DNA of 64,000 nucleotides from Elusimicrobiota bacterium (GCA_030651035.1 JAUSCK010000277.1:7711-71710), one strand, 5' to 3'; counted from the stretch's first letter, positions 772-38,485 are shown. A program made the numbers and translations. The notes: generated from the sequence alone by a model not told the origin.

Positions 772-774
772 TAA

Positions 775-933: not shown

Positions 934-945
934 CTATAATAAATA

Positions 946-3356: not shown

Positions 3357-3367
3357 ACGTCCCTCTT

Positions 3368-6690: not shown

Positions 6691-9600
6691 TCACGGGCCG
6701 ATGCTCAGCACGTAAGTCTTGCCGTCGCCGGAACCTGTTATCAGCACTCTGTTCTCTATGTCCGCTACGGGGTCGGCCCTGACGGGGCCGCCGGTGGCCA
6801 CAGGCCAGCCGTCGCGCAGCTGGCCGGTATTCGCGTTGACCGCGTAGATATAGCTGTCGTCGCAGCCGAAATAGACGTAATCCTCAGCCAGCCCGACGTA
6901 GCCGCCGGGAACCAGCACCGGCGAGGACCGGATCTGGCCGTTGGCCTGGAAAGTCCAGGCCTCGGCGCCCGTGACGGCGTTTATCTTGTGCAGCCTGCCG
7001 GCGTCGTCTCCCACAAAAATATACTTCGTCCCGCCAAGCGGCCAGATGAAAGGAGAGGAATAAAGCGGGGAGAACAAGTCCACGTAGCCAAGGGCCGGCC
7101 AGCCCGTCGGGATGCTCTCCAGGTTGGCCGCCACCCTGGCGTAGAGCCGGCCGTCGGTGGAAGCCAGGTAAAGATTGTTATTAGCGCCGCCGTAGCCGGC
7201 GTCCACGTACGGGGAAGATTTAATGGCGGCGCCGGTCTGGAAGGAGGTATCCACGTAGCCGTCTCCGGTCCTGAAGGTCACCATCTTGCCGTTGTCCAGG
7301 CCTATCCAGCCGCGGTTGACGTCGGTACGGTCGTCTATGGACAAGGTCCCCACGATAGGAGAATTTACGCTGGAGCTGAAGGTCCAGTCGGCGCAGTTCA
7401 GGCCGTCGGAGACATTAAGACAATAGATCTTGCTGTCCATGGTGCCCAGGTAGAGGCGCTCACCTATGACCATTACGCTGGAGCGCACGGCGGAACCGAG
7501 GCCGCGCTTCCAGACCTGGGAGACGCCGGGACCGTTGTCCTGCACCCGGTATATATCGCCGTTGTCGTTGGCAAAATAGACCTGGGGAGCGCCGCTGGGC
7601 CAGGGCACCGTCGGCCCGTTCCTTATGGGCGAGGCGGGGGACGGAGTGAACGCCCACTTGAACGTGCCGTCGCCGTTGAGCGCGCGCAGCACGCCGTCGG
7701 TGGCCGGGGAATAGACCGTGCTGCTGCCCTCATTGGTATAGTAATCGACCGGCGCTTCCACCGAGGTGGGCTCCGGAGGCGTGTAAGGCCAGGAGGTCCC
7801 GGCCGGCGCGGAGGACGGGGCTATGGCGGTCACCGAGGAGCTCTCGATCTCGGCCGCCGCCGGCAGCAGCTGCGCGAAGTCGGAAGGCCCGTCCCTCACG
7901 GTCAGTTCCGTATCGGCCCTGAACCTCAGCCTGAACACGTTGACGGCCTGCGAGGCGGCGTCCGCCTTCATCATGACCACCGCGAAGAAAGTGGCGGTAG
8001 AGGCGGCCGCCACCGAATTCGCGGCGGCGCCGGGGTTGGCCGCCGTGATAACCTGCGTTCCAAAAGCGTCCAGGGAGATCTCGCCGTTGCCGACGTAGGC
8101 CGCGGTATCGGTGTCTATGGCCGGCTCATAGATCCCGGGCAGGCCGGAAGCGGAATCCCTGGCTATATAGACGGCGTCGAACAGGGCGGAGGCCTTCGCG
8201 GTGTCTAACGGGTTGAGATCCGCGTCGTAGAAACGCAGCGAAGCCGAGGCCAGCTCGACGCTGTTATAGCCGGAGGGGCTGTTATTGGAGACATAGAAGA
8301 GGGCCAGGTCGTCGGAAGCGCCCTGGTTTACGCGCGCCGGGGCGGTGGTGGAAGCGGAAACGGTATGGACACTGGCGTCGTAAGTAACCGCGGCCAGCGC
8401 CAGCTGCGGGGCCGAGTCGGAGACGGAGTCGCTGTTGAGCAGCAGGCGGTAAACTGCGTTATGGACAAGGGCATGGCCGTCCTGGTCGGCGAACGAAACT
8501 CCGGCCTGGGCCGTGGACTGGGCCGCCAGCGAGGCCAGGTCGAAGCCTATGTCGCCCAGCCGGTAGAGATGCGGAGAGTAGTTGTCGGCGGCGCCTCCGG
8601 TCCGGATAAGCGCGATATTATCGGCGGTCCCTCCGGAGGAGTCGGCGCCGAGGGTCAGGCGCAGCGGGAACAGCCGCGGCAGCTTCTGGCCTTCGGCCGG
8701 GTAGGCGAGAGTATTGGCCGCGCCTGCGCCGGCCCCATTGTTCCTGGACATGGGCGTGGCGGCCACGGCAGCGGAGACAAAATCAGTGGAATCCGAGCCT
8801 ATGTCCTCTCCCTCCGAGGGCCGCCTGCCTATCGAATACGGCGCATTGGCCGGGGCGTAAGCCGCCGCGGACACCTGCGCGGCCTTGTAATTATACAGGC
8901 TGTAGCTGGTCCCGCTCTGCCAGGTAACGCGGTCCACGGTCTGCCCGACGGCGTTCTCAAGGGAAAGATAATCCCCGGCAGCGTTCAGCCCCCCGGTTCC
9001 GAAGGCCGACTGCCAGGACAACTGGTCGTCGCTGATCGAAGAGAAAACCAGCAGTGAATAATTCCCGGCATATATCTTGCGGGTGAACGTGAACTTCACC
9101 GCGTTGGAATTCCTGAGCGAATAGCCGCTGAGCGTGGGGGTATCCGCGCCGGTGTTAAAGAGTTCCACGAACTCGGAAGAAAGCGTCCCGTAGGCGGCCT
9201 CGTTTATTTTGACGAGGCCCGTGCTTATGGCGTTGGCGTAGCCCCTCGTCGGGGTCGGGTCAGCCTCGAAGAAGTCGGCGTTGCCGTCCTCTATCCTGGC
9301 GAAGGACTGGCCGGCTTCGAGATAAGGCCACTGCACCCTGTCTATGAGCACGCCGGAGGGATCTTTCAGCAGCAGGTGGTAGCTCTGAGCGCCGTTGAGG
9401 TTGAATGAAATGGTGCTTACAAAATGTGCGTTCACGCTGCTCCTGTCTACGTCCGCGCCGGTCCAGACCGTCACCTCGGGGCCCGGCAGGTCTATGGTGC
9501 CCTGGTTATAGACCAGCGTCCAGCCGGTCAGGTTGAACGTGCTGGCGGTGTTGTTGAAGAGCTCCACCCAGTCGTCGACGGCGGCCGCGCCGGAAGGATA

Positions 9601-12600
9601 GACCTCGTTGATATAGACATTGGCCGTCTGCGGCAGGCTGGAAGGCACGTTGGAAATGGCCGAAGTGCTGCCCGCCTTGTCATAGGTCTTTACCGCGAAG
9701 TAATAGGTCTTACCTGCCTCGAACCCGTAAAGCACCTTCGATTCCGTAACGCCGGCGCCCTGCGGGACCCAGGCCTGGGCGTAAACGCCCGCGGAGTCGA
9801 ACAGGGCCGCGGTTATATTGTAGGTGGCCGCCCTGACCAGATAGCCGCCCTGCGCGTTATCATTGAGCGCCCCGTCGTCGCCCGGCGCGGGCCATTCCAG
9901 CTTCACCGAGCCCCTGACCGGGCCGGGAGAGGCCGCAAGCGCGGTTATATCGGCCGGGGCCTGGGTGTCTTTAAGCACTTTAAAGGCGTCAACGAGCGTG
10001 GCGCTGGAAGAAGCCCAGTCCCAGACCCGCACCGTGATATAGTTCGTGCCGTGGGCCAGCAGGCCGAAGTTCATACCCCAGTCCGCGCTATAGGAGTTGC
10101 CCACGCCGGTGCCGGAGGAGATAACAGCGTTGTCCACCGCGTTGGCCCCGGTCTGGGCAGCCCCGGTCCAGGCGGAATATGTAATGGACGAGATCTGCGC
10201 CCCGCCGGAGTCGGCAAAGTTCACGTCGTAGATGTTCCCCGCGTCCGCGCTGCGCCAGGCCGGGTCGAAGCCGGCTGCCAGGTTGTTGGTTATAGTCGGG
10301 ACAGTAGTGTCCTTCCTGACGTAGAAGGCGTCCACCGCGGAGTTGGAGATGTTGCCCACATTGTCCAGCGCCCTGACCGAGACGTATGACTGGCCCTGCG
10401 GCAGTATATTGAAGGTGCCGGCGGCCAGCGGCCAGTCGGTGGTGTAGGAATCCAGGTTTATGCCCGTCACCTGGTCCGTCCAGTCCTGCAGCAGCGTTCC
10501 GCCCAGGCCCGCCGCGGAATGGACCTTGGTCTGGACGCGGGCCAGCCTGGAGCCGCCGGAATCTGTGGCGTCGACGTTATAGTAGGCGCTGGCATTGCGC
10601 CAATTGTCGTCGCCGGCCTGGTTGTCCGCCGCGGTGGGCGGCACTATATCGTGCCTGTCGAAGTCCGCCGCGGCGAATTCATAGATATGACCCGAGCCGC
10701 TCTGTTCATGCAGAGCATTGGCGGAGGCCCCGGCGGCTGCCCAGGCAGAGCCGTTCCAGACCGTGCTCCTGACGTCGTTAGCCGGCCCATCGACTCCCAG
10801 CGCGGTTATATTGTCGGTGTTAGGGTCCGGTATCAGCGAGAGCCAGGTTATGCTGCCGGCGAACACCGTGTTGTTGTTGGTGGCCGTCACCGACGGGCTG
10901 GCGGGGCTCCAGGTCCCGGCGGACCAGGTAATCCAGTCAAATTTATTATCAGTAGCTCCGGCGTCATCCACCGCCACGGCCAGCAGCTGCCCGGACTGGG
11001 ACTCCCAGGCGCAGTCGGTCATCCTGTAGCCCGTCCCGCTCATCGCCGTATCTTCCGTAGGCAGGGCTGACCAGGCCTCGGCTCCTGCGGGCCGCCAGAC
11101 CGCCATGTTCCAGTCTATATCGCCGTCGAGCGAGGTGAGGCCTATCCGGTTGGTGGACGGATCGGAGCAGAGGCGTATCCAGTTAGCGCCCGCCGTGGCG
11201 GCCAGGGCCGGACCGGCGGTCGGAGCGCCCCAGGTGGAGGCGGAATACCACTTGCGGTAACTGGTGCCGGTGCCCGTGCCCCACAGCACCAGCGCGTCTC
11301 CGGTCTGCGTCTCCCAGGCGGCGTCGAAACTTTCCTTCGTGGCTATGGAACCGGCCGTGGTCAGGTTGACGTTGTCTATCCAGACCGAGCCGTTCCAGAC
11401 CGCGGCTGAGATGTCGGAATTGGCGTCCAGGGCCGTCAGGAGTATCCTGTCGGTGCCCGGCATGGACCTGAGCCGCACCCAGTTGACGGTGCCGGTAAGC
11501 GAGGTCAGCGGGAGGCTGGCGGGGCCGGCCGCCCAGGCCGAGGCCGAGGCCGACCAGACGGCGTAGGTCACCGCGCCGGTGGTACCGTTATAGTAGGCCG
11601 TCATGATCCGGCCGCTCAGGTTCTCTGCGGCCATGTCGAAGCGCCGCGTGACCGAGCCGCCCGGGGCGGGCGCGGGAGCGGGCGTGGCGTCCGACCAGGC
11701 GGAGCCGTTCCATTTGAGCACCTTCAGCGAATTGTCGGAATAGAGCAGCCCGGCCAGTTTCTGGTTCGCCACCAGGGGCACGGACTTAAGCACGGACCAG
11801 CGTATGACCGAGCCGGTTACGCCGCTGTCGGCCTCCGCGCTCCAGTTAGGCGGGACCCAGGTCTGGTATCTCAGGTTGGCGGAATTATCGCCGTAGACCA
11901 GCATGCCGTCCGCCGCCCCGGCGGGGGCCGCGGTGCCCACTATCACGTTGGAGATAGGAGCGGTATTTCCGGCTTCGTCCACCGCCTTGATGGCGATGGA
12001 ATAGGTGGCGCCGGGCGAAAGGCCGTCCAGGACCCTGGCCTCGGCCTGGCCGTAGGCCAGCGGCGTCCAGGTCTGGGTGTAAGAGGAAACGTTCGGCGCG
12101 CTGAAATTCCCGGAGTTCACGGCGAAAGTGGCGTAGCGCACGATATAGGCCTGCGCCGTGCCGGCCCCAGCCACGCCCGCCACCCCTTCGCCGGGGGCGG
12201 TCCAGTAGAGGTTCACCTGGCCCTGGAAATCGCCCTGCAGCGAACTGAGGTCGGAGACGGTCTCGGGCGCGGTGAGGTCCAGCCCGGCATAGGTGGAGGT
12301 CAGGTTGGACAGCGCCCCGGTGTTACCGGCCTTGTCCACGGCCTTCACCGCGGCGTAATACGTTACCGAGGGGGTCAGGCCGGCTATAATGATACCCTCG
12401 CCCTGCCCGGCCGCCTTCGGGGTCAGCGTAGAGACGAACACGCTCACGGCGTCGAAGTTGCCGTCGTTTATGGCGTCGGTGTGGTAGCGTATCATGTAAT
12501 AACTGGCGGAGCCCGCCAGGGCATTGTCCCCGACGGCGGTCCAGTAGACATTAAGTTTCCCCTCGTCGGCGGCCGCCGGCGGCGTGACGGCTGACAGCGC

Positions 12601-15600
12601 GGTAATGCCCGAAGGAGCGACCGTATCTTTGAGTATATAGAACAGGTCCACCGCGGCCGAGGACTGGTCCAGGCCGTCCCAGGCGGTGACGCTGATATAG
12701 TTCGTTCCCGCGGCCAGCAGGGTGAAGGCCGCGTCCGTCAGGCCCCAGTCCGCGGTGTAGGAGGTGATTGGCGCCCCGCTGAAGATCTGCGAGGAGGCCA
12801 CGACGTTGGCTCCGGTCTTGCCGGGCCCGGTCCAGGCCTCGTAAGCCGCGCTGGAGAGGCCGATACCGCCGTCCGCGAAGTCCACGTTGAAAACGTCGCC
12901 GGGATTCAGCCTGTGCCAGGTGGTGTCGCCGGCCTGGAGGTCGGTCATGGACGGGGCGGCGGTATCCTTCTTGAGATAGAAGGCGTCCGCCAGCTCGGTC
13001 AGGTTGCCGGCCTTGTCCCAGGCCCTGACCGAGATATAGTTGAAACCCTGGGCGGCGTTGTTAAAGTCCGCGCTCCAATCCGCGGTGTAAGACAGCAGGC
13101 CGGTGGAAGTGAAGATCTGCGTCCAGCCCAGCGACTGCGAGCCGCCGGCCGCCGGCTGCGTCCAGGCCGCGTAGGCCGCGCTGGAGACCCTGGAGCCGTA
13201 GTCGGAGAAGTCGGCGTTATAGAGCGTTCCCGCCGCCGAGCGCCAGTTATCATCGCCGGCCTGGTTGTCGGTTATGAGCGCCGGCGTGGTGTCCTTCAGT
13301 ATCCTGAAGGCGTCAGTCAGGGTGAACGATGAACCGGCGTTGTCAAACACACGCAGCGAAATGTAATTGGTGACGCTGTCGACCAGCGCGTCCCAGACCC
13401 CGGAGGCCAGCGGCCAGTCTGCGGGATAGGCGGCGGCGTTCAGCCCCAGGGTATTGTCGGTCCAGTCCGGCGAGTAGGGCCCGGCGCCGGGCGTGGTGGA
13501 GGCCCGGACCTGGAACTTAGCCAGCAGCGCGCCCCCGGTGTCGGTGAAATCAGCGTCGTAGAGACCCGTGTTGAGGCCGCGCCAGTCGAACTCCCCGGCC
13601 TGGGCCGACGAGGCCGCAGGCGCCGTAGTGTCCTTGAATATCCTGAAGGCGTCCACCAGTGTGCCCGTGGTGCCGGCTATATCCCAAGCCCGCACCGAAA
13701 TATAATTAGTGCCTTCCGGCAGCAGGTCCCAGGCCGCCTGCGGCAGGGCCCAGTCGGCGGCGTAAGAGGCGGAATTGAGGCCGGAAGCTATGGGGGTCCA
13801 GTCCACGGGCATGATGCCGGTGCGCGCGGCTCCCGTGGTCACGCTGAACTGGTAGACGGAAAGTTTTGAACCGCCGGCATCCTGCACGTCCACGTTATGG
13901 AGCGTGCCGGAGGAATTGCGCCAGTTCAGATCGCCGCCGGCAGCGCCGTTGACGTAGGACGGGGCCGTGGTGTCCTTGAGCACGTAGAAAGGCTGAGAAC
14001 CGTAGGTGAAGAGGTTGCCGGCGCCGTCATAGACGCGCACGGAGATATAATTCGTCCCCTCCCGCAGCAGGTCCCAGACTCCGGAGGCCAGGGCCCAGTC
14101 GGAGGTATAGGAAGGCAGGTTTATCCCCGCGACATTGTCCGTCCAGTCGGGAGAGAAGGGCCCGATCAGGCCGGCATTGGTGGAGGCGCGCACCTGGAAC
14201 CTCTCCAGCCGCGAACCGCCCGTATCCGTGAAATCCACGTTGTAGAGGCCGTTATTGGCGTTGCGCCAGGCGTCATCGCCCGCCTGGAGGTCCGTCACCG
14301 ACGGAACGGTGGTATCCTTGAACACCCTGAAGGCGTCGGTAGAGAAGGTTATATTCCCGGCCTCGTCGTAAACCCGCAGCGAGACATAATTCGTGCCCTC
14401 CTGAAGCAGGTCCCAGGCCCCGGCGAAAAGCGCCCAGTCGGCGGAGTAGGCGGGAGCGTTAATGGCTGTGATATTGTCGGCCCAATCGGTCACCAGCGTG
14501 CCGGTCTGGGAGGCCCCGGTGGTTATCTTGACCTGGAACTTCTCCAGCAGCGAGCCGCCGGAGTCGGTGAAATCCAGGTCATAGGCCGCGCCCGCGGCGC
14601 CGCGCCAGGTTTGGTCGCCGCCGGCGATATTATTGGTTATGACGGCCGGGACGGTGTCCTTCCTGACGTAGAAGACGTCGGACTGCGAGGCCGAGTTCTG
14701 GGCCTGGTTATAGACCCGCACCGAGATATAGTTGGTGGCGGCGCTGAGCATAGCGTCAAACACGGTCCCGGGCAGCGCCCACTCCGCCGTATAGGACGCG
14801 GAATTTATGCCGGTGACGGCCGCCGTCCAGTCAGAGGTGAAAGGCCCGGCGCCGCCGGGCATGGTGGAGGAGCGCACCTCCAGCCTGTCCACCAGCGAGG
14901 CGCCGGAAGCCGAGGCGTCCACGTTATACAGCCCGTCGTTTACGCTCCGCCAGGCCGTATCCCCGGCCTGGTTGTCGGTTATGGTCACGGTCTGGGTGTC
15001 CTTCCTGATATAGAAGGCGTCGGCCAGCGTGCCGGAGGAACCGGCATTATCCCAGGCCCGCACGGAGATATAGCTGGTGCCGCTGGGCAGCAGAGCCCAG
15101 AGCTCGGCGGTCAGCGCCCAGTCGGCGTCGTAGGCGGCGGCGTTAATGCCGGTCACCAGGTCCGTCCAGCCGAAATGCGGCGTGCCGGCCAGGCCGGTCG
15201 CGCTGGAGGCCGTCACCTGGAACCTGCTTAGCAGCGAACCGCCGGTGTCGGCGAAGTTCACGTTATAGGTCCCGTTATTGGCGCTGCGCCAGGTATCGTC
15301 ACCCGCCTGCAGGTCCGTGACGGCCGGAGGCGTGGTATCCTTGCGCACCGCGAAGACGTCGGTCTGCGCGGCGAAGTTGCCGCCATTGTCGTAAGCCCGC
15401 ACCGAGATATAGTTGGGGCCCTCGGGCATGGAGGCGAAGTCCAGCGACCAGGGCATGTTGTAATAAGTCGCGTTGATGGCGGTGATCCTGTCCGTCCATT
15501 CCCAGACCAGCGTGCCGGTCTGCGCCGGGCCCGTGGTGACCCGGGTCTGGAACTTGGAGAGTTTGGCCCCGCCCAGGTCGGCGAAGTCCACGTCGAAAGC

Positions 15601-33600: not shown

Positions 33601-34857
33601 GCCATTGGTCCAGCCGGCCATGGCCGGGGTGAAGTCGTGGAAGAACTGGAAGCCGGAGATCTGGGAGGCCGTGGTTTGTATGGCGTAGTTCCTTAGCGGC
33701 ACGTCGGAACCGCCTATCGAGGAGGCCACGGGCAGCTGGTCGCCTGTAGCCGAATCAAAGCTGCCGGCCACCCTGGCGTAGACCCGGCGCAGGGTTACGC
33801 CCTCTTCCCGCAGGTACAGGGGAATGGCGAAGTTGGTGGTTGAATTGGCCAGCGTGCCCTGGCCCAGGAAATAACGCGCGGTCTGGGTCTTCGAGGCGGA
33901 GTCCCTTGAGAACTCATAGGTCAGCACTACCTCGCCGGACAGCAGGTTCACCGGGGCCACGCCTATGGGCACGTTCAGCGTCTGCAGGGTATTGGCCAGG
34001 AAGCCGTCGGGCTGATCGGAGGAGGAGAGGTAGAGGAAAGAATAGGAATCCCCGAGGCCGTCATCCAGGTTCATGGAAGGCTCGGCCGCCCCGGTGCCTA
34101 TCTGGCAGCCCAGCGTGCCGTCGTTCGTGCCGTTCTGGTGATAGCCGCGCAGCTCGAACCACTGCTGCTGTATGGAAACCCCGGAGTCGGCTATCTCCGC
34201 GTTATACTGCATGAGCGCGGTGCCGGCGGCCTGTTGGCCGGTGAAAGCGGCAATACCCGAAGCGTAATCGGAATAGAGCGGGAAGCGGACCGTCTTCACC
34301 TGCGTGGGCGACTGGTCGTCATACTCGTAGGTGACGTAGAGCTTCATGGAATGCGAGTTGGAGGCGGGGCCGGTTATGGTCACGCCGGCCGTGAACTGCC
34401 TGCCGGCCGCAAGTTGGGCCAATTCCGCCTGCACCACGGCCGTGACGTCGGTCCTGGCGAAAAGCCTTATGGATTCCACCGTGGAGTCGGTATATTGGGC
34501 GCTCTGCAGCCGTATGGTGGAAGCGGTGGCCCCGGCGTTGAAATAGATCTCTATCGGGTTAGTGTCGGAGGCGGCCGTAAGGCCCTCGAATTCGAGCCAG
34601 GCGCTTTTTATGGCCTTGCCGTTCTCGGGAAGTTTGACCGTCCTGGTGGGAAAATTTAACTGTGTACCGGAGTTGACGTCCGCGCCGTAACGTCCGCCAA
34701 AATTGTACTCGACGGTCTTTATGCGGGTTTCCGCGGAAACGAAGGACAGAGGGTAAAGCAGGAAAGCCAGGAAAAGGAGGCGCCGGGCAAAAGAAAGGCC
34801 GCGCGGAACAGATCCGCGTTTCGCGCCTCCCTTTTCCTCAGCGTTCCCGAATAACAT
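6691..34857 (-). CDS. Giant secreted repeat protein (9,388 aa), putative surface fibre/adhesin
   Basis: Uninterrupted 28,167-nt ORF; ATG at 34857 lies 12 nt after the Rrf2 stop, with AGAGGA overlapping that stop. Sec-type N-terminus. About 50 hand-counted modules of about 100 aa (FYVxKDTxxP, xQxGDDxWR, YNVDFxD, NY[IV]SVRxxDxAGN). Also FN3-like modules, Trp-rich modules, lamin-tail-like segments and a C-terminal PQQ-like propeller. Confidence 0.9.
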   Translation of the reverse strand: MLFGNAEEKGGAKRGSVPRGLSFARRLLFLAFLLYPLSFVSAETRIKTVEYNFGGRYGADVNSGTQLNFPTRTVKLPENGKAIKSAWLEFEGLTAASDTNPIEIYFNAGATASTIRLQSAQYTDSTVESIRLFARTDVTAVVQAELAQLAAGRQFTAGVTITGPASNSHSMKLYVTYEYDDQSPTQVKTVRFPLYSDYASGIAAFTGQQAAGTALMQYNAEIADSGVSIQQQWFELRGYHQNGTNDGTLGCQIGTGAAEPSMNLDDGLGDSYSFLYLSSSDQPDGFLANTLQTLNVPIGVAPVNLLSGEVVLTYEFSRDSASKTQTARYFLGQGTLANSTTNFAIPLYLREEGVTLRRVYARVAGSFDSATGDQLPVASSIGGSDVPLRNYAIQTTASQISGFQFFHDFTPAMAGWTNGEVVRATVTAVTNAGGATGAPGMELIVTYDYTNDAAHTSSYEVLAGSDVTSALDGTYASVFGLYYPEVNGSKVMRSAWLYADIIQNDNIGDFTTTIDFDGNSAQTAAVRSITETTYMNRFYANTAQASAFPAFITANYSVSSGRGTLGGAARVNYGFTPVPKLVTGLQQYANGSALTAGTYTNARSISLEGVVASSMSADNLYFVLELKPSASSFDGLGLATGTLNSYSGTPLTVSLSSAGLTSGTVYKWRVRTLGDGGPGGWTAFTSPSFAVDYSSPPAPAMAAIAPAHNANLSITAFPLSWEAVADIDGSGLKNYELQVATSADYGTLSFSSAPLGALVQVSGLTQKYYYWRVRALDNAGNTGNWSAEKNFRVDLSTPTATSNIGTGDQAWRKANDGVYDVDFADLGESLIKQVEVKVTSGAAQTGTIFADWTLALAAVNADSYSGDWTLPAGVWNLMQSWTTNYVSVRVVDYSSQTYTLADAFKVFKDTVTPSYVNGEAGGDNTWRKAGRNYNVDFADPYSKLAGAKYEAWTGAARTGTQKKALTAIPSVSGASFGTDWSVDFASLEDSAANFISVEFYDVAGNTTTITDAFYIRKDTTPPSNINGEAGGDTAWRKAGRNYNVDFADAGSGLNGAKYAARTGANYTGTLKVASTTIAGVTGASFNADWSVDFASLEDSAANYVSIELYDVAGNTATITDAFYVRKDTTPPSNVNGESGGDNTWRKAGRNYNVDFADAGSGLNGAKYAARTGPNYTGALKVASTTIGGVAGASFNSDWSVDFDSLEDSAANYVSIELYDVAGNTATITDAFYVKKDTTPPSNINGETGGDAAWRKAGRNYNVDFADAGSGLNGAKYAARTGPNFTGSLKVASTTIAGVAGASFNSDWSVDFTSLEDSAANYVSIELYDVAGNTATITDAFYVKKDTTPPSNVNGEAGGDNTWRRTSRNYSVDFSDGGSLLAGAAYEAWTGGGKTGTQKKALTAIPGVSGASFNTDWAADFDALADEVLNYLSVEVYDVAGNTSTITDAFIVRKDTTAPRLADGQSGDDIWRNEPGTVYNVGFTDPVLLDHAQYSVWSAPGRTGTLRKDWTYINGSPINSSNYDTDWAVDFSALAEGQTTNYISVRAWDVAGSTAVFDDVFYAQKDVSLPYITDSQGGDDAWRSSSGTLYGVAFGDAGGSLLNSAEYKITTGAGQGGTLVLDWTALAAGIGAASYPGPWALPQAAWNGLPAGLSYISVRVTDYAGNSQAQSDVFYVKKDTQAPSATDLQSGDSAWRKTGSAVYDVDFADAGGSLLQKVQVKITTGPSQTGTLVTDWTDNLTNIDASSYSDPWSLAAGLFDLLQSGTNYVSVRVFDYAGSSSALTDVFYVKKDTSAPTVTDGQGGDDSWRRFGGTVYNVDFADPGAGLSGAKYEAWTGPGRTGTQKIALTAIPSVTGPLFADNWAVDFALLEQGTNYISVEAYDALASTATSADVFYVKKDNAAPVITDSQAGDGTWRNAAGTVYNVDFQDLNSKLATAQYRITSVTGQGGTVIKDWADIFTAQELSSYAADWQVAFADLTSGVTGYVSVRAYDTGGNLSQVSDVFYVLKDTIAPYIAISTPPGGYGAYENDPGGVFNVDIFDEGGSQLSYLQYSISSGSAFSGTLVKEWSNFALNVGATYYMQNWGVDFNALLKDPATNYVSLRGYDTAGNIIVSTDVFKIFRSSSAAPNLVDNQAGDDIWRNSSGTYYNVDFTTSSGFALDWFEAAAYSELGRLGDLLINWTTVRTNLGSSPYADDWPLPESFFNGMREGVNYISVRVYDSSSPANVSNVKDVFYVRKDTSPPSVPVLLSPVDNAGLNYAGVMFDWADSNGLQSGTSNYELILATSSDFTTITASSSPVVSQAYVPGLAQNPYYWKLRAKDHAGNFSAFASTYTFLVDLATPTITGLQADATHYLTANTGLYNVNFDDLGGSLLDKAQVRVTSGPAQTGTLLVDWTDAVTGMNSLSYSTDWALPASAWNALPSGPTGYVSVKVYDRAGNSFVQSDVFTVWKDTAPPYVSDNQAGDDNWRGSDPGAIYNVDFYDLESLLTTAQYRLYSGAGQTGALLKDWTTIVYLPGGTTQYSSAWGVDFGAALEGMTYVSVSLSDRAGLTSQAGDLFYVRKDTSAPVITDGQAGDGSWRSTPGTVYNVDFGDLSSGLTTVQYKVTRETGETGTLVKDWTNIVPDLAGQTSYAADWTLDFSALLETVTNYVSVRAYDQLGLGTTVQDVFYVRKDVTLPAITDDQLGDDAWRNADTASYSVSFADAGGSLLDRAQVKITSGPAQTGTLIADWTDRITDIEAATYAAPWQLGAALWNQLPEGKSYVSVRAYDNAANPRTVTDAFHVRKDATVPVINDVQSGDDSWRNTNSASYALSFSDTGGSLLASAEVKITTGPAQTGTLIADWTPVASAIDSSSYPGPWSLTAGLWDLLAAGTNYVSVRVSDNAGSAASLADAFYVRKDTQAPAINDTQGGDSVWRNSNAGSYAVGFTDPGGSLLSKFQVRASTVAGGAGPFSPDWTDNVTAINAASYPGPWTLVSGVWTLLQPGTNYISIRAYDNAGSPAVLADAFNVLKDTQTPSGSAVPPAYAGALAFNVAWSASDSGPSGVNYARLYYTLDTVSPYTWTQFGSTFNSSPIAFTAPSGGTAGFRIVAYDRAGNSDEADPPAAETAPEASTLVDLAAPSVTDNQAGDDAWPNAGGTSYNVDFSATGASDLDTAQYKVTSGPSQTGDVLKDWTTIAAGIGSPSYTANWQVDFAALKSSFNYVSARAWTVAGTTTTANDVFYVKKDTSPPAALDNQAGDDAWRRAAGTLYDVDFQDQLSLLANVQYSASSAEGSASGNLVAWTNIAYGISAENYTTDWEADFAALNSGGTNYISVRAYDLAGNMSVSTDIFHVHKDTVPAVITDNQAGDASWRTSNAGVYNVDFADAGGSLLSVIQVRASSGPAQTGTLAFDWSDLATGVNSASYADNWSLQAGNWNLLLPGTNYISVRAWDTAGTTVTLNDAFYVLKDQAGPGITDNQGGDDAWRAYAGTVYNVDFDDPLSGLASLQAKVHSEPGGAGLLLADWTQVTALAGAAHAADWALVPSLFSAMAEAQNYVTIRAYDTAGNYSTLADAFYVRKDATGPVITDNQGGDAVWRSTYNGVSYNVDFDDTLSLVSKFQVRASSGQGFTGNQALDWTDDLTGINASSYAGDWEFAPGVWALLLPGTNYISIRAYDVAGATSTLADAFYVLKDTAAPAAVSDLAAGTGSEGEVTLSWTASGDDASSGTALAYIVKLSSTGAINAGNFDSAGTYAQSWQPAASGLPENGSLTGLQADTLYYVAIKVQDKAGNLSAISNLPSGTSGADVTNPGTISLGAATGAFEGQVDLSWTAPGDNGVAIGTATAYLARYRTDQAITSLPLWDGAQVYAQSWQPLGAGEAEVKTISGLTPGTVYYWAVRAVDEVNNTGSLSNSPSASAQNAGAVGGIMQFGVSSSYDVPYFRKWAPPAFGSAQTGLETAAAANSQIRHAVVKASRLRNEKISGLLSSDGVLQIQRYDGVTDAWTNEWSVTEIGATNSAYRGFDIAYEQNSGRAMVLYSGVTAGQLKYNIWNGASWSGAVTLTSGTANASLWVRLEPKPGSDELMAAVLKATSLEIYAMRWTSTTWRDGTQIVASAGSSAKQRYDIAWEKTLGRCLVVYGGATGRADTKIWDGSAWSAYTATYFSFAGGNGVAQWIRLVSDPTSDRIGATAVDSGADWNAAIWDNGWTYAATENGAVDSNANQARSIDAAWESQSGKLVVVSAHGTASGLLYSSWTVSGGWGTTLAAAPTVTGWSNAVRSAVLESDPNTNSLILTAASGSNDLRSATWNGSAFSLYGSVHTAAISANAYMPFDFALDRHDTSAPTLADNQAGDDTWRNSNTGSYDVDANDTGGSHLKEIQVKVYTGAGQTGTLVLDWSAQVSTAVVDSYTDNWALAASTWTALREGVNYISVRSLDGALNATVNPAVDAFYVKKDTTAPSVPSLSSPADNAAVNTQPLLDWSDSSDGTSGVAGYTLQVSTSDDFTTLSFSDSPSVSQASASGLDSGKYYWRARALDAAGNYSVYSSTFAVFVDTAPPVVTDAQAGDDTWRRSSGTVYNVDFTDAGGSRLQNVRYAVYSSTGRQGAELVSFASGLIADSIGADSYPTDWKLSQAHWDLLPNGTSYVSAQAADAAGNTAVLEDVFYIRKDVTAPGVSDNQAGDDAWRKDSAAVYNVDFTDTGGSLIDRIQVKVTTGPAQTGTLISDWTSLASGVNSASYASDWSLGASTFTLMQSGTNYVSVRVFDYAGSTATLSDVFYVRKDTTAPSAPSLVAPADGGYSNSAGPLFDWSDSADALSGLSGYEIYIGTDEFFSVFSASAAASSSQHQAAGLVSAAYYWKARAADNAGNYSAWSSTYALVLDTAPPTMADNQAGDDAWRGSDPGAVYNVDFADAGGSLLDTVQYSAWTQPGLGGSNLVPWTNITAPPVNLAAYAADWAANFDLLGSGTSYISVRAADRAQGSAETQDVFYVRKDASPPSITDNQAGDDAWRNSNAGVYNVDFTDSGGSRLDKFQLKITTGPSQTGTVLLDWTDKAGAINSETYAEDWTLSFDQWTLLGPGTSYISVKAFDGAQNQATLSDAFYIRKDTSAPSITDNQGGDDAWRGSNSGAYNVDFADTGGSKLAYFQIKVTTGAAQTGTLVSDWLTVLSGLNAASYDAEWAVPEGVFTAMQSGLNYVSVRVFDNAGLTQSLNDAFYVKKSTSAPRVTDSQGGDDTWRSMAGTVYNVDFEDAGTSLLAAAQYKVTSLPAQAGTLLKDWTFIASNINASAYTTDWSVDFAALAENGSNYVSVRAWDVAGATTTAADVFYIRKDITLPGITDNQAGDDTWRNADTGVYNVDYTDAGGSLLDRIQVKATTGPSQTGTVLQDWLDVAAGINSSGYSANWSLPAGVWNALLEGPNYVSVRVYDNAGNTSALSDAFYVRKDTTVPSVPSLSTPADFAYVRTLGPTLDWTNSSDGTSGIYGYEALVSTHSGFSVIASSGAPAASQFTAALSMSATHYWKVRASDNAGNYSDYPSAYALVVDTIAPVITDGQAGEVSWRKADGGAVYNIDFADALSTLDTLQYSAWTGAGQTGANPVPWTNIAAGYSQQQYQGDWAVNFSLLSAGTNYISVRAWDLAGSTGTLADAFTVLKDTFAPSVTDSQAGDDTWRNSNSAVYNVDFADALSGLATAQYYISTDVSMGGSQVKNWTDIFSALNAPSYSSDWSLSAAAWSLLPEGTFYLTVRVFDTLAQDATSYDVFHVRKDVSAPGVTDNQADIAAAHSQADLSAINADFTDTGGSLLSYAQYTAWSDGYQTGGEVIPWTNIVTGINAASYTQDWSVNFAVLPNLAYSYITVRIYDNAGNSHIQDVFSLYKDASAPSIIDNQSGDDTWRASNTGVYNMDFQSQSGQNLDKFQVRASTCTSGCAYAPDWTDVVTALGAVDYTADWALPGAVFDALAAGRNYVSVRAHDLVPSSGTFDNAFYVQKDTSAPSITDGQTGDAAWRAAAGTVYNVDFLDSLSGLATAQYKVMSGAGQTGTLLKDWTNIASLTPGQASYSSDWAVDFAALSEVFTNYVSVRAYDALAQSAALDDAFTVLKDTTPPSAPALSSPADNALYSVSAVSFDWTDSSDLRSGTSGYALEVSTRADFQVVAYASAPAVSAASLPAVGDGVYYWRVRAADAAANYSAWAATRAFIVDVSSPEVINNQASPTAWYGSDPGAVFDVDFRDLSSGLTSVEYRITSLPAGGGGLYKDWTVISFTPGGLALYDAAWGVDFAAAKDGSNYVSVRAFDRVALSSAAADAFVIRKDTSAPSITDGQAGDDNWRNASGSLYNMDFADSGVGVSTAQYRVTSLPNGAGTVLKNWTDLFSGQAYASYTADWGVDFFALQETATNYVSVRAWDALGSSRTAEDAFYVLKDVTNPSVADNQADTDWLAADPGAAFDVDFADLGGAKLSKFQTRVTTGPAQTGTLVWEWTDRITAINATYYNMPWSLDFASMPEGPNYISVRAYDNGGNFAAQTDVFAVRKDTTPPAVTDLQAGDDTWRSANNGTYNVNFADTGGSLLSRFQVTASSATGLAGTPHFGWTDLVTGINAAAYDADWALTAELWALLPSGTSYISVRAWDNAGSSGTLADAFYIRKDTQTVTITDNQAGDTAWRSVNDGLYNVDASASGASLVDRLEVRSSTMPGGAGPFTSDWTAAVTGINSASYTAEWALPGTVFDAMLSAATNYISVRVYNQAQNSASQSDVFYVRKDTVPAVITNNIAGGDQTWRGAAGAAYDLDFTDSGGSLLEKFQVKITTGASQTGTLVTDWADNITAINAPAYSADWALFAGAWDLLQEGTNYVSLRVYDEAGNITFSTDAFRVFKDTTVPSVTDLQAGDDAWRNANNGLYNVDFTDTGGSRLERFQVRASTNAGLIGPFSPDWTDNVAGINLPSYTSDWALASGVWDLLREGTNYISVRVYDGAGNLFTYGSQPFYVLKDTTAPSYVNGAAGGDLNWRNSSGTLHNVDVQDAGGSKLSVYQFSVTTGAARTGIMPVDWTPIASGLNSASYAADWALPQAAWDLLPEGTNYISVRAWDIAGTTGTLVDAFRIFKDTTAPAASSAQAGEFDWRGLNTGLYDADFTDTGGALLAKFQVRASTTPGAGPYSPDWTDNTLGLNAAAYPADWPLASGVWDALVDSVTNYISLRVFDNAGSSFTLTDAFRILKDTTPALITDNQAGDDNWRSAAGTLYNADFSDYGSRVSSAAYAAWTQPAAGGSQSLGWTQIFTSTGLLSYTADWSADFNNAAQGFNYISVRAWDKAGNLTELADAFYLKKDTAAPSMTDLQAGDTTWHRLNPGDVFNVDFADGGIGLSSAAYEAWTGPGKTGANVVASSQIFSGAPITSYTADWGLTDAAFTLLAAGTNYISVTAWDGLDQSSAAVDLFYILKDTVAPSGITALSAVTPPAAADEGKLNVYWTAVGDNALAGSASYYMIRYHTDAINDGNFDAVSVFVSTLTPKAAGQGEGIIIAGLTPSVTYYAAVKAVDKAGNTGALSNLTSTYAGLDLTAPETVSDLSSLQGDFQGQVNLYWTAPGEGVAGVAGAGTAQAYIVRYATFAVNSGNFSAPNVSSYTQTWTPLAYGQAEARVLDGLSPGATYSIAIKAVDEAGNTAPISNVIVGTAAPAGAADGMLVYGDNSANLRYQTWVPPNWSAEADSGVTGSVIRWSVLKSVPLVANQKLAGLLYSDNSLKVLKWNGSAWSDATPAPAPAPGGSVTRRFDMAAENLSGRIMTAYYNGTTGAVTYAVWSASASAWAAGPASLPLTSLTGTVNWVRLRSMPGTDRILLTALDANSDISAAVWNGSVWIDNVNLTTAGSIATKESFDAAWETQTGDALVLWGTGTGTSYRKWYSASTWGAPTAGPALAATAGANWIRLCSDPSTNRIGLTSLDGDIDWNMAVWRPAGAEAWSALPTEDTAMSGTGYRMTDCAWESQSGQLLAVAVDDAGATDNKFDWITWSAGTWSPASPSVTATNNNTVFAGSITWLSLIPDPNTDNITALGVDGPANDVRSTVWNGSAWAAAGASANALHEQSGSGHIYEFAAADFDRHDIVPPTAADNQAGDDNWRNASAYYNVDATDSGGSRLARVQTKVHSAAGLGGTLLQDWTDQVTGINLDSYTTDWPLAAGTFNILPQGQSYVSVRALDNVGNISNSAVDAFYVRKDTTVPTITNNLAAGFDPAWRSADAGNIYDVNFADSGGAQISSITYSAWTGAAQTGANAVDNAVISSGTGVGNSYSADWGMNFGLLAHGTNYITVRVWDWASSSATLVDAFKVLKDTQAPADITALAASPGPVRGSVKLEWPAPGDDGALNDNAQGGYLVRAATYNITAALFDSAGVYAQAWVPQGAGVTESKVLYGFEAGKTYYFAVKTYDKAGSTSAISNVPSSLPQTANVYINEVYPSGAAAVDDWVELFNNTASTFNLTGWTLVYNQGTIDLPGPEVTVWTGADVDRSSVNAHFVSTISFNLNGAQSYHLLLKDPSGVLIDRVQWPYLEAGQSFARIEDGNADFFEADPTPTRGYANAISTGLVKINEAAYGTLSSEFVELFNTGADTPTLSGYSLRNSNAVKFTFTRKIYAGNYSLLVFSSISDDQLSWQSAFGTGGLNAAGDYLSLENAVGQTVDRVTWQSGTSYSLYNYKAAQVSAAAYAPANAPYSIGRRPSEGEDIGSDSTDFVSAAVAATPMSRNNGAGAGAANTLAYPAEGQKLPRLFPLRLTLGADSSGGTADNIALIRTGGAADNYSPHLYRLGDIGFDLASLAAQSTAQAGVSFADQDGHALVHNAVYRLLLNSDSVSDSAPQLALAAVTYDASVHTVSASTTAPARVNQGASDDLALFYVSNNSPSGYNSVELASASLRFYDADLNPLDTAKASALFDAVYIARDSASGLPGIYEPAIDTDTAAYVGNGEISLDAFGTQVITAANPGAAANSVAAASTATFFAVVMMKADAASQAVNVFRLRFRADTELTVRDGPSDFAQLLPAAAEIESSSVTAIAPSSAPAGTSWPYTPPEPTSVEAPVDYYTNEGSSTVYSPATDGVLRALNGDGTFKWAFTPSPASPIRNGPTVPWPSGAPQVYFANDNGDIYRVQDNGPGVSQVWKRGLGSAVRSSVMVIGERLYLGTMDSKIYCLNVSDGLNCADWTFSSSVNSPIVGTLSIDDRTDVNRGWIGLDNGKMVTFRTGDGYVDTSFQTGAAIKSSPYVDAGYGGANNNLYLASTDGRLYARVAANLESIPTGWPALGYVDLFSPLYSSPFIWPLGGTKYIFVGDDAGRLHKINAVTGAEAWTFQANGQIRSSPVLVPGGYVGLAEDYVYFGCDDSYIYAVNANTGQLRDGWPVATGGPVRADPVADIENRVLITGSGDGKTYVLSIGP
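6694..7800 (-). other. C-terminal PQQ/BamB-like beta-propeller of the giant protein
   Basis: Repeated blade pattern: DGVLRALNGDGTFKWAF, GDIYRVQD, DSKIYCLNVSDG, DGRLYARV, AGRLHKINAVTGAEAWTF, SYIYAVNANTGQLRDGW. Confidence 0.65.
8800..9620 (-). other. Two lamin-tail-domain-like segments
   Basis: VYINEVYPSGAAAVDDWVELFNNTASTFNLTGWTL and VKINEAAYGTLSSEFVELFNTGADTPTLSGYSL match the LTD hallmark I-N-E ... [DE]-[WF]-V-E-L-[FY]-N ... L-[ST]-G-[WY]. Confidence 0.6.
10650..12640 (-). other. FN3 pair plus Trp-rich module 2 of about 420 aa
   Basis: ILKDTVAPSGITALSAV and two FN3 units are followed by GAADGMLVYGDNSANLRYQTW...KWNGSAWSD...VWNGSVWID...TVWNGSAWAA, ending at FDRHDIVPP. This is a paralogue of module 1. 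Confidence 0.55.
16174..16185 (-). repeat. Homopolymer of 12 G on the coding strand (C12 on plus) inside the giant ORF
   Basis: The plus strand reads cagcccccccccccccggc. The tract encodes Gly6225-Gly6228 (LPAGGGGLYKDW) and is the longest homopolymer I found in the window. Confidence 0.9.
21900..23845 (-). other. FN3 pair plus Trp-rich module 1 of about 420 aa
   Basis: VLKDTAAPAAVSDLAAGTGSEGEVTLSWTASGDD and a second FN3 are followed by GGIMQFGVSSSYDVPYFRKW...IWNGASWSG...IWDGSAWS...ATWNGSAFS, ending at LDRHDTSAP. The periodic W-x-G-[ST]-x-W pattern suggests a propeller or beta-sandwich array. Confidence 0.55.
27950..28870 (-). other. Low-GC compositional island inside the giant ORF
   Basis: Hand counts: line 28501-28560 has 23/60 G+C and line 28621-28680 has 25/60, against 39/60 for a typical flanking line (29401-29460). 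The segment covers about three modules and the frame is preserved. Confidence 0.75.
30500..32140 (-). repeat. Five tandem 327-nt (109-aa) units, the inner three near-identical
   Basis: The linker sequence recurs with a 327-nt period (e.g. 30811 vs 31138). Protein units run DAFYV[RK]KDTTPPSN[IV]NGE.GGD..WRKAGRNYNVDFADAGSGLNGAKYAARTG...NYVSIELYDVAGNTATIT. The outer units share EAWTG..TGTQKKALTAIP. Confidence 0.85.
34732..34857 (-). other. Predicted Sec signal peptide of the giant protein (aa 1-42)
   Basis: MLFGNAEEKGGAKRGSVPRGLSFARRLLFLAFLLYPLSFVSA/ET has a long basic n-region, a hydrophobic core and small residues at -3/-1. Confidence 0.6.
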
Positions 34858-34869
34858 AAACTTTTTCCT

Positions 34870-35316
34870 CTACTCTTCCGCCGCGCCGCCGCCGCTTGTC
34901 GGCCTCGGCGCTTTTTTCTTTTCCCCGTCCTTATGCCGCTCTTCCTCTTTCATCATCTCGATGATATCCTGCACGCTGAGGCCCACCAGCCAGTGGTTCA
35001 CCTCTTCGCGCAGGGTTTCGTACAGCTTTATGGAGATCTGTTTCCGGTCGGCTTTGGGCGCGCCGTTGAAAGTGAAGGACTCCATCAGTTCCCAGACGCT
35101 GATATCGTCCAGTTCTTTGTTCAGGCGGTAGCCTTTGCCTTTCTGAGATTCCACGAAACCCGCGTGCACCAGCGCCTGCAGCACCTTGTTGCAGTAGGCC
35201 GCAGGCAGGCCCTGGAATTTGGAGATCTGCCCTACTTGGTTCCAGGCGCCGCCATTGTTCTGCCCGAGGTAATGCAGGCAGGCCAGGCCATAAGCTAAGG
35301 TGCGGTTCATCTTCAT
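34870..35316 (-). CDS. Rrf2-family transcriptional regulator without a Cys cluster
   Basis: 148-aa winged-helix N-terminus (RTLAYGLACLHYLGQ...ISKFQGLPAAYCNKVLQALVHAGFVESQKGKGYRL). It lacks the three C-terminal Cys ligands of IscR/NsrR. Its stop lies 12 nt before the giant gene ATG. Confidence 0.8.
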   Translation of the reverse strand: MKMNRTLAYGLACLHYLGQNNGGAWNQVGQISKFQGLPAAYCNKVLQALVHAGFVESQKGKGYRLNKELDDISVWELMESFTFNGAPKADRKQISIKLYETLREEVNHWLVGLSVQDIIEMMKEEERHKDGEKKKAPRPTSGGGAAEE

Positions 35317-35414: not shown

Positions 35415-35442
35415 AGTATAGCAGGCGTATTTCCATAGTCAA
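35415..35442 (-). promoter_or_regulatory. Sigma70-like promoter for Rrf2 and the giant gene
   Basis: The minus strand reads TTGACT-N16-TATACT. The -35 box overlaps the rSAM stop codon (35439-35441). Confidence 0.5.
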
Positions 35443-36536: not shown

Positions 36537-36563
36537 ATCCGGATTTCCCGAATGGGGTGCGAA

Positions 36564-36905
36564 TTACACGAACAACAGAGCAAGCGAGCGGCGGATCTTT
36601 GAGTAGATATAGCCGCAAAGGCCGCCGGCAAGGGGGTTTCGGCTCAGGACTTTGCCGCGGATATTTTCCCATGGCACCAGGTGGGGTTCCAGGCGGCCGG
36701 CGTCATCCGCCAGCCAGGCGCCTTCCGGCCCGGTTTTTACCACCCGGTGAAGCAATATGCGGCCCTCAAGATCGTATACAGCGCAATCGCCTGGGGAAAG
36801 GATAAGGGATGAGGGATGAGGGATGAGGGGATGCACGAGGGCAATCTCGCCGGGTTTAAATACCGGGAGCATGCTTGACCCCTCAAGACGGAAAGCGGCG
36901 GGCAT
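36564..36905 (-). CDS. S26B-type (SipW/Sec11-like) signal-peptidase-fold protein, candidate leader peptidase
   Basis: 113 aa. EGSSMLPVFKPGE (GxSMxP Ser box) and ILLHRVVK (His in place of Lys, as in archaeal/ER-type S26B). The ATG lies 2 nt after the precursor stop. Confidence 0.6.
   Translation of the reverse strand: MPAAFRLEGSSMLPVFKPGEIALVHPLIPHPSSLILSPGDCAVYDLEGRILLHRVVKTGPEGAWLADDAGRLEPHLVPWENIRGKVLSRNPLAGGLCGYIYSKIRRSLALLFV
36797..36831 (+). repeat. Five tandem heptamers RARGGAT inside the peptidase gene
   Basis: aaaggat aagggat gagggat gagggat gagggga, encoding the loop PLIPHPSSLILSP in frame. Confidence 0.85.
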
Positions 36906-36907
36906 AT

Positions 36908-37045
36908 TCAGGAAAATTTTTTAAGCGTCTTACAGGCCAGCTGGCTGATGGGCCCGGTCTGGCACTTGCCGCAGGCCAGCGCGGCGGTCTCAAAGACCTT
37001 TTCGGTCTTTATTTTAGGTTTTTCGTATGTCTTCTTTTTTTTCAT
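36908..37045 (-). CDS. 45-aa candidate RiPP precursor peptide (not in the ORF track)
   Basis: My translation is MKKKKTYEKPKIKTEKVFETAALACGKCQTGPISQLACKTLKKFS. GGGGGAG sits 7 nt upstream of the ATG. The ORF begins 14 nt after the PqqD stop, and its stop is 2 nt before the peptidase ATG. It has a PqqA-like KP leader, an A-L-A site and three Cys. Confidence 0.7.
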   Translation of the reverse strand: MKKKKTYEKPKIKTEKVFETAALACGKCQTGPISQLACKTLKKFS

Positions 37046-37059
37046 AGATCACTCCCCCG

Positions 37060-37323: not shown

Positions 37324-37355
37324 TAGTATTTATCCGAAAAGTCAGCGGGCTTTTT

Positions 37356-38376: not shown

Positions 38377-38377
38377 A

Positions 38378-38438: not shown

Positions 38439-38451
38439 CCCCGCATCCTCT

Positions 38452-38476: not shown

Positions 38477-38485
38477 CTAATCCCA

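Follow-up and report, generated by a model that had tools for sequence, protein, structure and literature searches.

A 9,388-residue repeat protein of Elusimicrobiota encoded beside a CTD-bearing propeller protein and a PorV/PorQ-family barrel

In a 64,000-nt stretch of DNA from an Elusimicrobiota bacterium (JAUSCK010000277.1:7711-71710), in the following called the window, a minus-strand open reading frame (ORF) encodes a repeat protein of 9,388 amino acids (aa), in the following called the giant, which is composed of an N-terminal head, a long stalk and a C-terminal base ending in a beta-propeller. An earlier note on this DNA had seen neither an anchor nor a route across the outer membrane for this protein. 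In cis none was found here either, but the ORF had been read in isolation from its neighbours, and the next two genes encode a propeller protein with a C-terminal sorting domain (CTD) of type IX secretion systems (T9SS), in the following called the partner, and an outer-membrane barrel of the PorV/PorQ family. As the trio of giant, partner and PorV/Q barrel is conserved in ~30 loci, the giant is not an orphan and belongs to a small family, mainly of Elusimicrobiota, with dedicated partners. How the giant gets to the cell surface, or is retained there, is probably accounted for by the downstream pair, and the sorting signal for the giant is apparently supplied in trans.

Partner genes and conservation of the locus

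The giant was scanned in ten overlapping segments against Pfam and NCBIfam and was additionally subjected to motif scans. In Pfam and NCBIfam no type-A domain (Por_Secre_tail/TIGR04183/PF18962) was detected, neither in the last 1,000 aa nor elsewhere, and the NCBIfam scan returned no type-B CTD (TIGR04131); the adjoining barrel belongs to the PorV/PorQ family and not to the PorP/SprF family. The giant contains no GGxGxD motif and no RTX-type Pfam match, and the neighbouring transporter is of the ABC-2 type. LPxTG is absent throughout the sequence, a C-terminal hydrophobic segment is absent as well, and no autotransporter/type V barrel and no two-partner secretion domain was found in the ten segments by Pfam or NCBIfam. 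A type V translocator is also missing from the structural models, in which the N-terminus consists of jelly-roll sandwiches and the C-terminus of a propeller. The absence of a CTD, LPXTG, RTX nonapeptides, an autotransporter barrel and a C-terminal transmembrane anchor, as reported in the earlier note, is therefore borne out by scans and hydrophobicity alike, and the hmmscan run proposed there as a check found no characterised anchor or export signal in cis. A cryptic CTD at the end of the giant was considered as well and rejected, as the model is propeller up to the last residue and the orthologues end at the same point.

The partner, a protein of 1,066 aa, combines a signal peptide (MKRNAVSF...SPVLSA/DW) with a C-terminal type-A sorting domain, as is characteristic of T9SS type-A cargo. 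The CTD is recognised by PF18962 (Por_Secre_tail; 42 bits, cut-off 27, E = 1e-10) and by TIGR04183 (35.8 bits, cut-off 23), and the N-terminal propeller by PQQ_2 with E = 4e-33; a search with the CTD alone returned only orthologous fragments. The possibility that partner and giant are one CTD protein of 10.5 thousand aa, broken by a sequencing error, was rejected: the partner gene lies in the frame of the giant, but two stops, a ribosome-binding site (RBS), an ATG and the partner's own signal peptide intervene. The following gene encodes the barrel protein of 528 aa, which scores 150.7 bits with NF033709 (cut-off 90), stays below the equivalog cut-offs of 220 bits for PorQ (score 85) and 250 bits for PorV (score 55) and matches Flavobacterium johnsoniae PorV in the SprA-PorV structure (6h3i_F, E = 1e-5). 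For its 170-aa C-terminal extension there was no Pfam and no PDB sequence match. Genes for SprA/Sov, PorK/L/M/N or PorU were not found inside the 64-kb window.

The search for syntenic homologues, which had been proposed along with the hmmscan, returned related loci with conserved partner genes. In a set of 35 loci, retrieved by means of the last 570 aa of the giant, the propeller partner follows in 33, its CTD in 28, the PorV/Q gene in 27 and the ABC-2 pair in 21-23, most of the missing cases being contig ends. Upstream genes were counted in 42 loci with an orthologous head, six of which have too little upstream sequence; these genes form a radical-SAM peptide cassette (precursor in 32, radical SAM in 31, PqqD in 29, ScmC-like in 27 and S26-like peptidase in 23 loci) followed by an Rrf2 regulator (18 loci). 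In locus L104, a 28-kb contig, the whole arrangement is found on one contig in the order PqqD, radical SAM, small ORF, MerR, giant of 4,521 aa, propeller protein with Por_Secre_tail, PorV, nucleotidyltransferase (NTP_transf_5) and convergent ABC-2 pair, with the MerR regulator in the position of Rrf2. The Elusimicrobiota head-stalk-propeller base family, as defined in the present analysis, shows its full feature set (head, base, cassette, CTD partner with PorV/Q) in the window, L002, L021 and L104 and piecewise in ~70 loci. Head homologues occur almost only in Elusimicrobiota (Elusimicrobiales, Endomicrobia) and Firestonebacteria, with distant copies in a few other bacteria and archaea; the head family comprises 201 cluster representatives among 1.84 billion proteins, and the best match among the GTDB species representatives, from an Elusimicrobiaceae metagenome-assembled genome (MAG), is 65% identical, by which the window most likely belongs to Elusimicrobiota, probably to Elusimicrobiales. 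To judge from L040, Elusimicrobium minutum also has a head-domain gene. Most head-bearing ORFs (36 of 44) extend past the fetched DNA, 16 of these after at least 3,900 aa.

Which part of the giant belongs to the partner genes can be seen from relatives of different build. The complete homologue encoded by L059 (3,242 aa) differs in its head, and its stalk consists of canonical FN3 domains; nevertheless its C-terminal ~1,000 aa (lamin-tail domains (LTD), sandwiches and propeller) are 51% identical to those of the giant, and the neighbouring genes are the same. The LTD domains are likewise kept in orthologues whose stalks differ. The protein P0011 (1,099 aa), encoded in the same type of locus, consists of head, sandwich and propeller only and is 30% identical to the last 570 aa of the giant (E = 4e-44). 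In the giant the last residue is that of the last propeller blade, and the end point is identical in four orthologues. From L059, P0011 and the shared end point it follows that the giant is a conserved head-plus-base core into which a stalk of ~8,000 aa is inserted. By these comparisons the base is the part travelling with CTD partner and barrel.

A fused relative connects the head with a CTD. In L052, the closed 2.9-Mb chromosome of a MAG, a PorV-family gene is followed by the gene of a 3,740-aa protein with a signal peptide and a head start GTRIKTVEF, and without a propeller, whose C-terminus aligns with the CTD of the partner (VY.FPNPA...S.TF.F.V, ASGVY.Y and KK[LV]AVI[HK] at the end). Since L052 fuses head/stalk and type-A CTD in one chain, these are suggested to be one functional unit in the sense of a Rosetta stone, and in the window this unit would be split into two polypeptides with a propeller at each new end. 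The head domain, sometimes duplicated, is also found in proteins of 0.7-2.2 thousand aa of Actinomycetota, Saccharibacteria and archaea (L004/L005, L049, L050, L054, L055), there without the radical-SAM cassette and without T9SS-type neighbours, which fits a distal binding role of the head rather than a function at the outer membrane.

Reading frame, modules and predicted structures of the giant

The giant ORF is real and coding. Translation and stop counts confirm a single uninterrupted frame with its ATG 12 nt past the Rrf2 stop codon (34870-34872), preceded by AGGA, and the estimate of roughly 1 MDa agrees with the computed mass of 988 kDa (pI 4.26, nine Cys). Because the remaining five frames across the 28-kb stretch contain 54-390 stops each and the G+C content at third codon positions (GC3) of the giant frame is 81%, this is a maintained coding frame and not a chance one. 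An antisense ORF of 1,102 aa (30388-33696, plus strand) lies within the gene, and its whole frame contains only 54 stops over 28 kb; both are expected from the GC3 of 81% in the sense frame and are not regarded as evidence for a gene.

The giant is a modular repeat protein, and its signal peptide points to export by a Sec-type route. Its only strongly hydrophobic stretch, aa 22-40 (RRLLFLAFLLYPLSFVSA/ET), forms the h-region of the N-terminal Sec signal peptide postulated earlier, the cleavage of which is predicted at VSA/ET, directly ahead of the conserved TRIKTVEY; in homologues the signal peptide likewise stops just short of the TRIKTVEY start. In the AlphaFold model of the head aa 1-40 are disordered or helical. 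The head shows the four units described before, with unit ends TYEY/TYEF/TYDY at aa 175, 312 and 445, and spans ~600 aa instead of the ~800 aa first given. It matches no Pfam or NCBIfam family and is modelled as a compact all-beta body (pLDDT 82, pTM 0.83). Foldseek comparison with PDB and BFVD returned only low-TM matches to jelly-roll or carbohydrate-binding-module (CBM)-like folds, namely Cry toxin domains, reelin repeats, a single-chain C1q head, viral multi-jelly-roll proteins and BcsB. Plausibly the head consists of four packed jelly-rolls forming a ligand-binding knob without a specific relative.

The stalk is dominated by Ig-like modules of ~110 aa, called A modules, with weak matches to Big_3_3, Big_13 and OmpL47-type families. 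A hidden Markov model detects 50 full-length A modules, which pairwise share a median of 40% identity, as well as additional partial copies, in agreement with the ~50 modules counted by hand, and the interspersed FN3-like modules are recovered by Pfam. Two Trp-rich modules (5-6% Trp) are present as described, with a length of ~360 aa instead of ~420 aa; they have no Pfam and no PDB sequence match, and module 1 is possibly a propeller-like lectin domain. The two lamin-tail-like segments and the C-terminal PQQ/BamB-like propeller of the earlier note correspond to LTD matches in two stretches and to a PQQ_2 domain with a matching Foldseek result. The C-terminal model (pLDDT 80, pTM 0.74) comprises a disordered linker and two sandwiches, a region (aa 8651-9030) without a Pfam or PDB sequence match, and an 8-bladed propeller that is nearest to BamB, YxaL and designed 8-bladed propellers (TMt 0.75-0.87). 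Predictions for head and C-terminus, also suggested as a check before, hence gave jelly-roll-like and BamB/YxaL-like folds. The giant is not a BamB: the fold match of its propeller has a TMt of ~0.75, TIGR03300 gives 51 bits against a cut-off of 285, a lipobox is absent, and the propeller is not a stand-alone domain of ~390 aa. The features of the window are compiled in Table 1.

Table 1. Features of the window, with positions counted from its first nucleotide
Feature	Position	Strand	Remarks
ABC-2 transporter	106..1761	+	convergent to PorV/Q gene; ATPase 106-771, permease 946-1761
Terminator-like hairpin	1769-1790		between PorV/Q gene and convergent ABC-2 genes
PorV/PorQ-family outer-membrane barrel, 528 aa	1791..3377	-	barrel aa ~57-360
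Partner protein, 1,066 aa	3430..6630	-	with RBS, ATG and signal peptide of its own; PQQ-type propeller at the N-terminus, FN3 modules, T9SS type-A domain at the C-terminus
Giant ORF	6691..34857	-	9,388 codons, ATG start, single terminal stop
Giant: 8-bladed BamB/YxaL-like beta-propeller, aa 9031-9388	6694..7767	-	Pfam PQQ_2, Beta-prop_ACSF4; Foldseek
Giant: low-confidence linker and two beta-sandwich domains, aa 8651-9030	7768..8907	-	AlphaFold2; homologous to P0011; conserved across loci
Giant: two lamin-tail domains, aa ~8401-8650	8908..9657	-	start of conserved C-terminal base; Pfam LTD 96.6 bits, 2 stretches
Giant: third short array	9658..10698	-	three A modules (aa 8054-8311) and one FN3-like
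Giant: Trp-rich module 2, aa 7641-8010	10828..11937	-	6.2% Trp
Giant: FN3-like modules, aa 7425-7640	11938..12585	-	
Giant: second stalk array, aa 4295-7424	12586..21975	-	~28 A modules and interspersed FN3-like
Giant: Trp-rich module 1, aa 3901-4260	22078..23157	-	5.3% Trp; internal ~100-aa periodicity
Giant: FN3-like modules, aa 3744-3900	23158..23628	-	
Giant: first stalk array, aa 641-3743	23629..32937	-	one FN3/Ig module, then ~27 A modules and few FN3-like
Giant: head, aa 43-640	32938..34731	-	one packed body of four successive jelly-roll-like beta-sandwich units in the AlphaFold2 model
Giant: N-terminal Sec-type signal peptide, aa 1-42	34732..34857	-	sole hydrophobic segment; position conserved in homologues
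Rrf2-family regulator	34870..35316	-	directly upstream of giant
Promoter-like site	35442-35415		by Rrf2 gene
Peptide-maturation cassette, whole	35439..39355	-	
Radical-SAM/SPASM enzyme	35439-36536	-	
S26-like peptidase	36564-36905	-	
Cys-rich precursor, 45 aa	36908-37045	-	
PqqD-like chaperone	37060-37323	-	
NTase pair inserted within cassette	37356-38376	-	
ScmC/HprK-like P-loop protein	38486-39355	-	
Tandem 849- and 767-aa proteins, then 461-aa ORF	39452-44301	-	each of the two with a spermine/spermidine-synthase-like domain; 461-aa ORF without family
Pseudopilin, 170 aa	45731-46243	-	N_methyl motif; ~11 kb from giant
866-aa protein	46248-48848	-	PilV-like N-terminus, two CarboxypepD_reg domains

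Assembly at the cell surface and rival explanations

The giant is best explained as a Sec-exported surface fibre whose conserved base binds with its propeller to the partner, which bears the CTD and is in turn retained by the PorV/Q barrel, a reading to which a probability of about 0.5 is assigned. According to this reading the giant would be exported by Sec and its signal peptide would be cleaved before TRIKTVEY. The variable N-terminal head would be distal and probably ligand-binding, the conserved C-terminal base of ~1,000 aa proximal, and the variable stalk in between, with ~50 Ig-like, about a dozen FN3-like and two Trp-rich modules, would reach a length of a few hundred nanometres, which is a rough estimate from typical domain sizes and not a measurement. 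The base would dock propeller to propeller on the partner, and the co-encoded barrel would keep the partner at the outer membrane, much as PorQ holds PorZ in Porphyromonas gingivalis. Thereby the sorting or anchoring signal for the giant would be provided in trans, and the giant itself may cross the outer membrane together with the partner, by way of a T9SS-like translocon, or may take another route. A surface exposure of the giant is suggested because its domain types are typical of extracellular proteins.

Several points weigh against this reading. The docking of the base on the partner is a prediction from sequence, the two propellers share just ~25-35% identity over the blades, and PQQ-type propellers are generic interaction modules. 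Surface exposure is likewise deduced from domain types only. By its scores the 528-aa barrel is a member of the PorV/PorQ family that stays below the equivalog cut-offs for both PorV and PorQ. The weak step is the passage of the giant itself across the outer membrane, and to our knowledge there is no precedent for a T9SS cargo that lacks its own CTD and is carried along by another protein. The literature places the T9SS in the Bacteroidota or the Fibrobacteres-Chlorobi-Bacteroidetes (FCB) group, and a literature search found no paper on a T9SS in Elusimicrobia or Elusimicrobiota.

Rather unlikely is an export of the giant independently of the downstream pair, for instance by type II secretion (T2SS) or a pilus-like system, in which case the giant would be released or form a loosely attached matrix or sheath and the pair would be separate surface proteins that are merely co-regulated. 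This would be consistent with the missing CTD and with the two pseudopilin-type genes ~11 kb upstream (Table 1), which by their motifs look to be parts of a type IV pilus or T2SS-like system, and giant proteins of Omnitrophota adjoin T2SS-like loci (bioRxiv 10.1101/2023.11.21.568195). However, in the loci that were fetched the pseudopilin genes were not seen to accompany the locus, in contrast to the CTD partner and PorV/Q, which nearly always do so; the fused protein of L052 joins the head directly to a CTD and has a PorV neighbour; and it is the base, not the head or the stalk, that co-varies with the partner genes. It is very unlikely that the giant remains periplasmic, or located at the inner side of the outer membrane, as an envelope scaffold, its propeller binding a POTRA-type or other periplasmic partner. 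BamB, the nearest structural relative of the propeller, is a periplasmic component of the BAM complex, and an outer-membrane translocation signal is absent in cis; but YxaL, which is a secreted protein, is an equally good structural match. In addition, modules of the LTD, FN3, Ig-like and jelly-roll/CBM-like kinds typically belong to extracellular proteins, a fibre of such length fits the periplasm poorly, the head also exists in organisms without an outer membrane (Actinomycetota, Saccharibacteria, archaea), and the fused relative carries an outer-membrane export CTD.

The assumption that the giant ORF is an assembly artefact, caused by mis-joined repeats or a wrong copy number, or a decaying pseudogene is highly improbable. 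It would agree with the breakage of short-read assemblies inside the giant gene, as in L001, with the many homologues that are 'partial' at contig ends and with the orthologous genes of several MAGs (L022, L026, L037, L040, L041 and L046), each of which is broken up into at least two overlapping ORFs that lie in different frames. These frameshifts may be assembly errors or real decay. In the window five tandem 327-nt copies at 30689-32159 are the only ones reaching 82-90% identity; they may reflect a recent local amplification, or they are the sole place at which the assembly may hold a wrong copy number. Other observations speak for an intact gene. Next to the 9,388 stop-free codons and the codon bias given above, most repeat copies show just 60-75% DNA identity, and two independent assemblies agree with the window over the 3' 7-10 kb: L001, a Logan contig, is 100% identical to window positions 3227-10585, and L056, a JGI contig, is 93.8% identical and collinear across 10.6 kb. 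The layout recurs in an orthologue that is truncated but still at least 6,986 aa long; its head is 56% identical, it has 50 A modules, and its Trp-rich block (aa 3916-4268) occupies the same position as in the giant. Complete relatives of 4,521, 4,148, 3,074 and 1,135 aa are known, and the module order in the two longest is that of the giant. The only real doubt concerns the copy number in the zone of 30.7-32.2 kb.

Peptide cassette, known systems and significance

Upstream of the giant the cassette encodes a small precursor (MKKKKTYEKPKIKTEKVFETAALACGKCQTGPISQLACKTLKKFS), for which no match to an NCBIfam family was obtained. In 36 distinct precursors CxxC...C and a C-terminal Ser are invariant, and a basic N-terminus, the core EK[IV].E.AAL.CGKC and the third Cys are kept. 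This conservation across the phylum and the linkage to the giant locus and the ABC-2 pump suggest a conserved partner rather than a fast-evolving antimicrobial. The ABC-2 pair may export the modified peptide; a connection of the peptide with the propellers would be speculative. In the window the ScmC-like gene is separated from PqqD by a gene for an HTH-nucleotidyltransferase (207 aa) and an ORF of 135 aa, which look like a toxin-antitoxin insertion of the MNT/HEPN type and are missing from that position in L002 and L006. In the Endomicrobia-type loci and proteins L003/L030, L035, L036, P0045 and P0051 the frame of the S26-like peptidase is continuous with, or called within, the N-terminus of the giant, and one such product is named 'S24/S26 family peptidase' by NCBI; these joins are probably gene-calling fusions. 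The cassette resembles the SynChlorMet (SCM) and HprK-related-PqqD cassettes (NCBIfam TIGR04248-04251, TIGR04352-04355) in its HprK-like P-loop, PqqD-like and radical-SAM/SPASM proteins and in its short Cys-containing precursor, whereas all its matches are far below the equivalog cut-offs. Literature searches on ScmC and SynChlorMet found nothing relevant, and we know of no description of such a cassette linked to a giant surface protein and T9SS-type genes.

Among known systems, the giant RTX adhesins of the LapA, MpIBP and SiiE type are acidic proteins of hundreds of kDa to more than 1 MDa with a long Ig-like stalk and a ligand-binding end. The giant shares with them the tandem Ig-like stalk with binding domains at one end, the acidity and the mass range; in contrast, it has an N-terminal Sec signal peptide and lacks RTX nonapeptides and a C-terminal type I secretion (T1SS) signal, and its neighbouring ABC genes are of the ABC-2 type instead of an ABC/membrane fusion protein pair of a T1SS. 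In the T9SS type-B adhesin/shuttle pairs of F. johnsoniae, such as SprB/SprF, the adhesin gene is linked to a dedicated barrel needed for secretion or anchoring (PMC12618676). The likeness consists in a very large, repetitive, Sec-exported adhesin whose gene is linked to an outer-membrane barrel. However, SprB bears its own type-B CTD and its barrel belongs to the PorP/SprF family, whereas the giant is devoid of a CTD, the barrel of the window is of the PorV/PorQ family, the CTD is of type A and placed on a separate propeller protein, and the phylum is another one.

In P. gingivalis PorZ, which has two propellers and a CTD, is held by PorQ, and PorU by PorV (PMC5562754). A surface protein with beta-propeller and CTD on a PorV-like barrel is thus found in both cases, the counterparts in the window being the partner and the 528-aa barrel. 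PorZ differs by its two seven-bladed propellers and its role in the delivery of anionic lipopolysaccharide (A-LPS) to the sortase, whereas the partner has one PQQ-type propeller and FN3 modules and is encoded beside a barrel and a giant protein that itself ends in a propeller. The giant proteins of Omnitrophota are flanked by conserved secretion-related loci, and a role in attachment was proposed for them (bioRxiv 10.1101/2023.11.21.568195). They are also very large ORFs of an uncultivated phylum that are fragmented in short-read assemblies. In contrast to the giant, which has just a signal peptide and beta-rich modules and is accompanied by T9SS-type neighbours and the radical-SAM cassette, they contain transmembrane segments, SecA-like, peptidase and other enzymatic domains and adjoin T2SS/type IV pilus-like genes.

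Giant adhesins are an already known kind of protein, and size alone is not new. What is new is the conserved ten-gene arrangement, in which the peptide cassette, the regulator, a giant without sorting signal, a CTD propeller protein, a PorV/PorQ barrel and an ABC-2 pump are combined and which recurs in Elusimicrobiota and a few neighbouring lineages. A far-reaching interpretation, which we consider distinctly unlikely as a whole, is that this is an undescribed, largely Elusimicrobiota-specific fibre assembly system, in which a fibre of ~1 MDa would be exported and anchored in trans on a propeller-CTD carrier with a PorV/PorQ-like barrel, T9SS-type sorting would operate outside Bacteroidota, and the strictly conserved 45-aa peptide, modified by radical SAM and exported by the ABC-2 pump, would serve the propellers as a partner of structural or cofactor-like nature and not be an antibiotic; quinohemoprotein amine dehydrogenase with its cross-linked small subunit would be a comparable case. 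The locus is in any case a clear instance in which a radical-SAM peptide cassette is linked genetically to a structural surface system. If the sorting signal is indeed supplied in trans, CTD/PorV-type surface sorting would operate outside Bacteroidota and a cargo could be coupled non-covalently to its sorting signal, and the system would be a concrete candidate for the means by which these bacteria, which are very small and for the most part uncultivated, attach themselves to surfaces or to partner cells.

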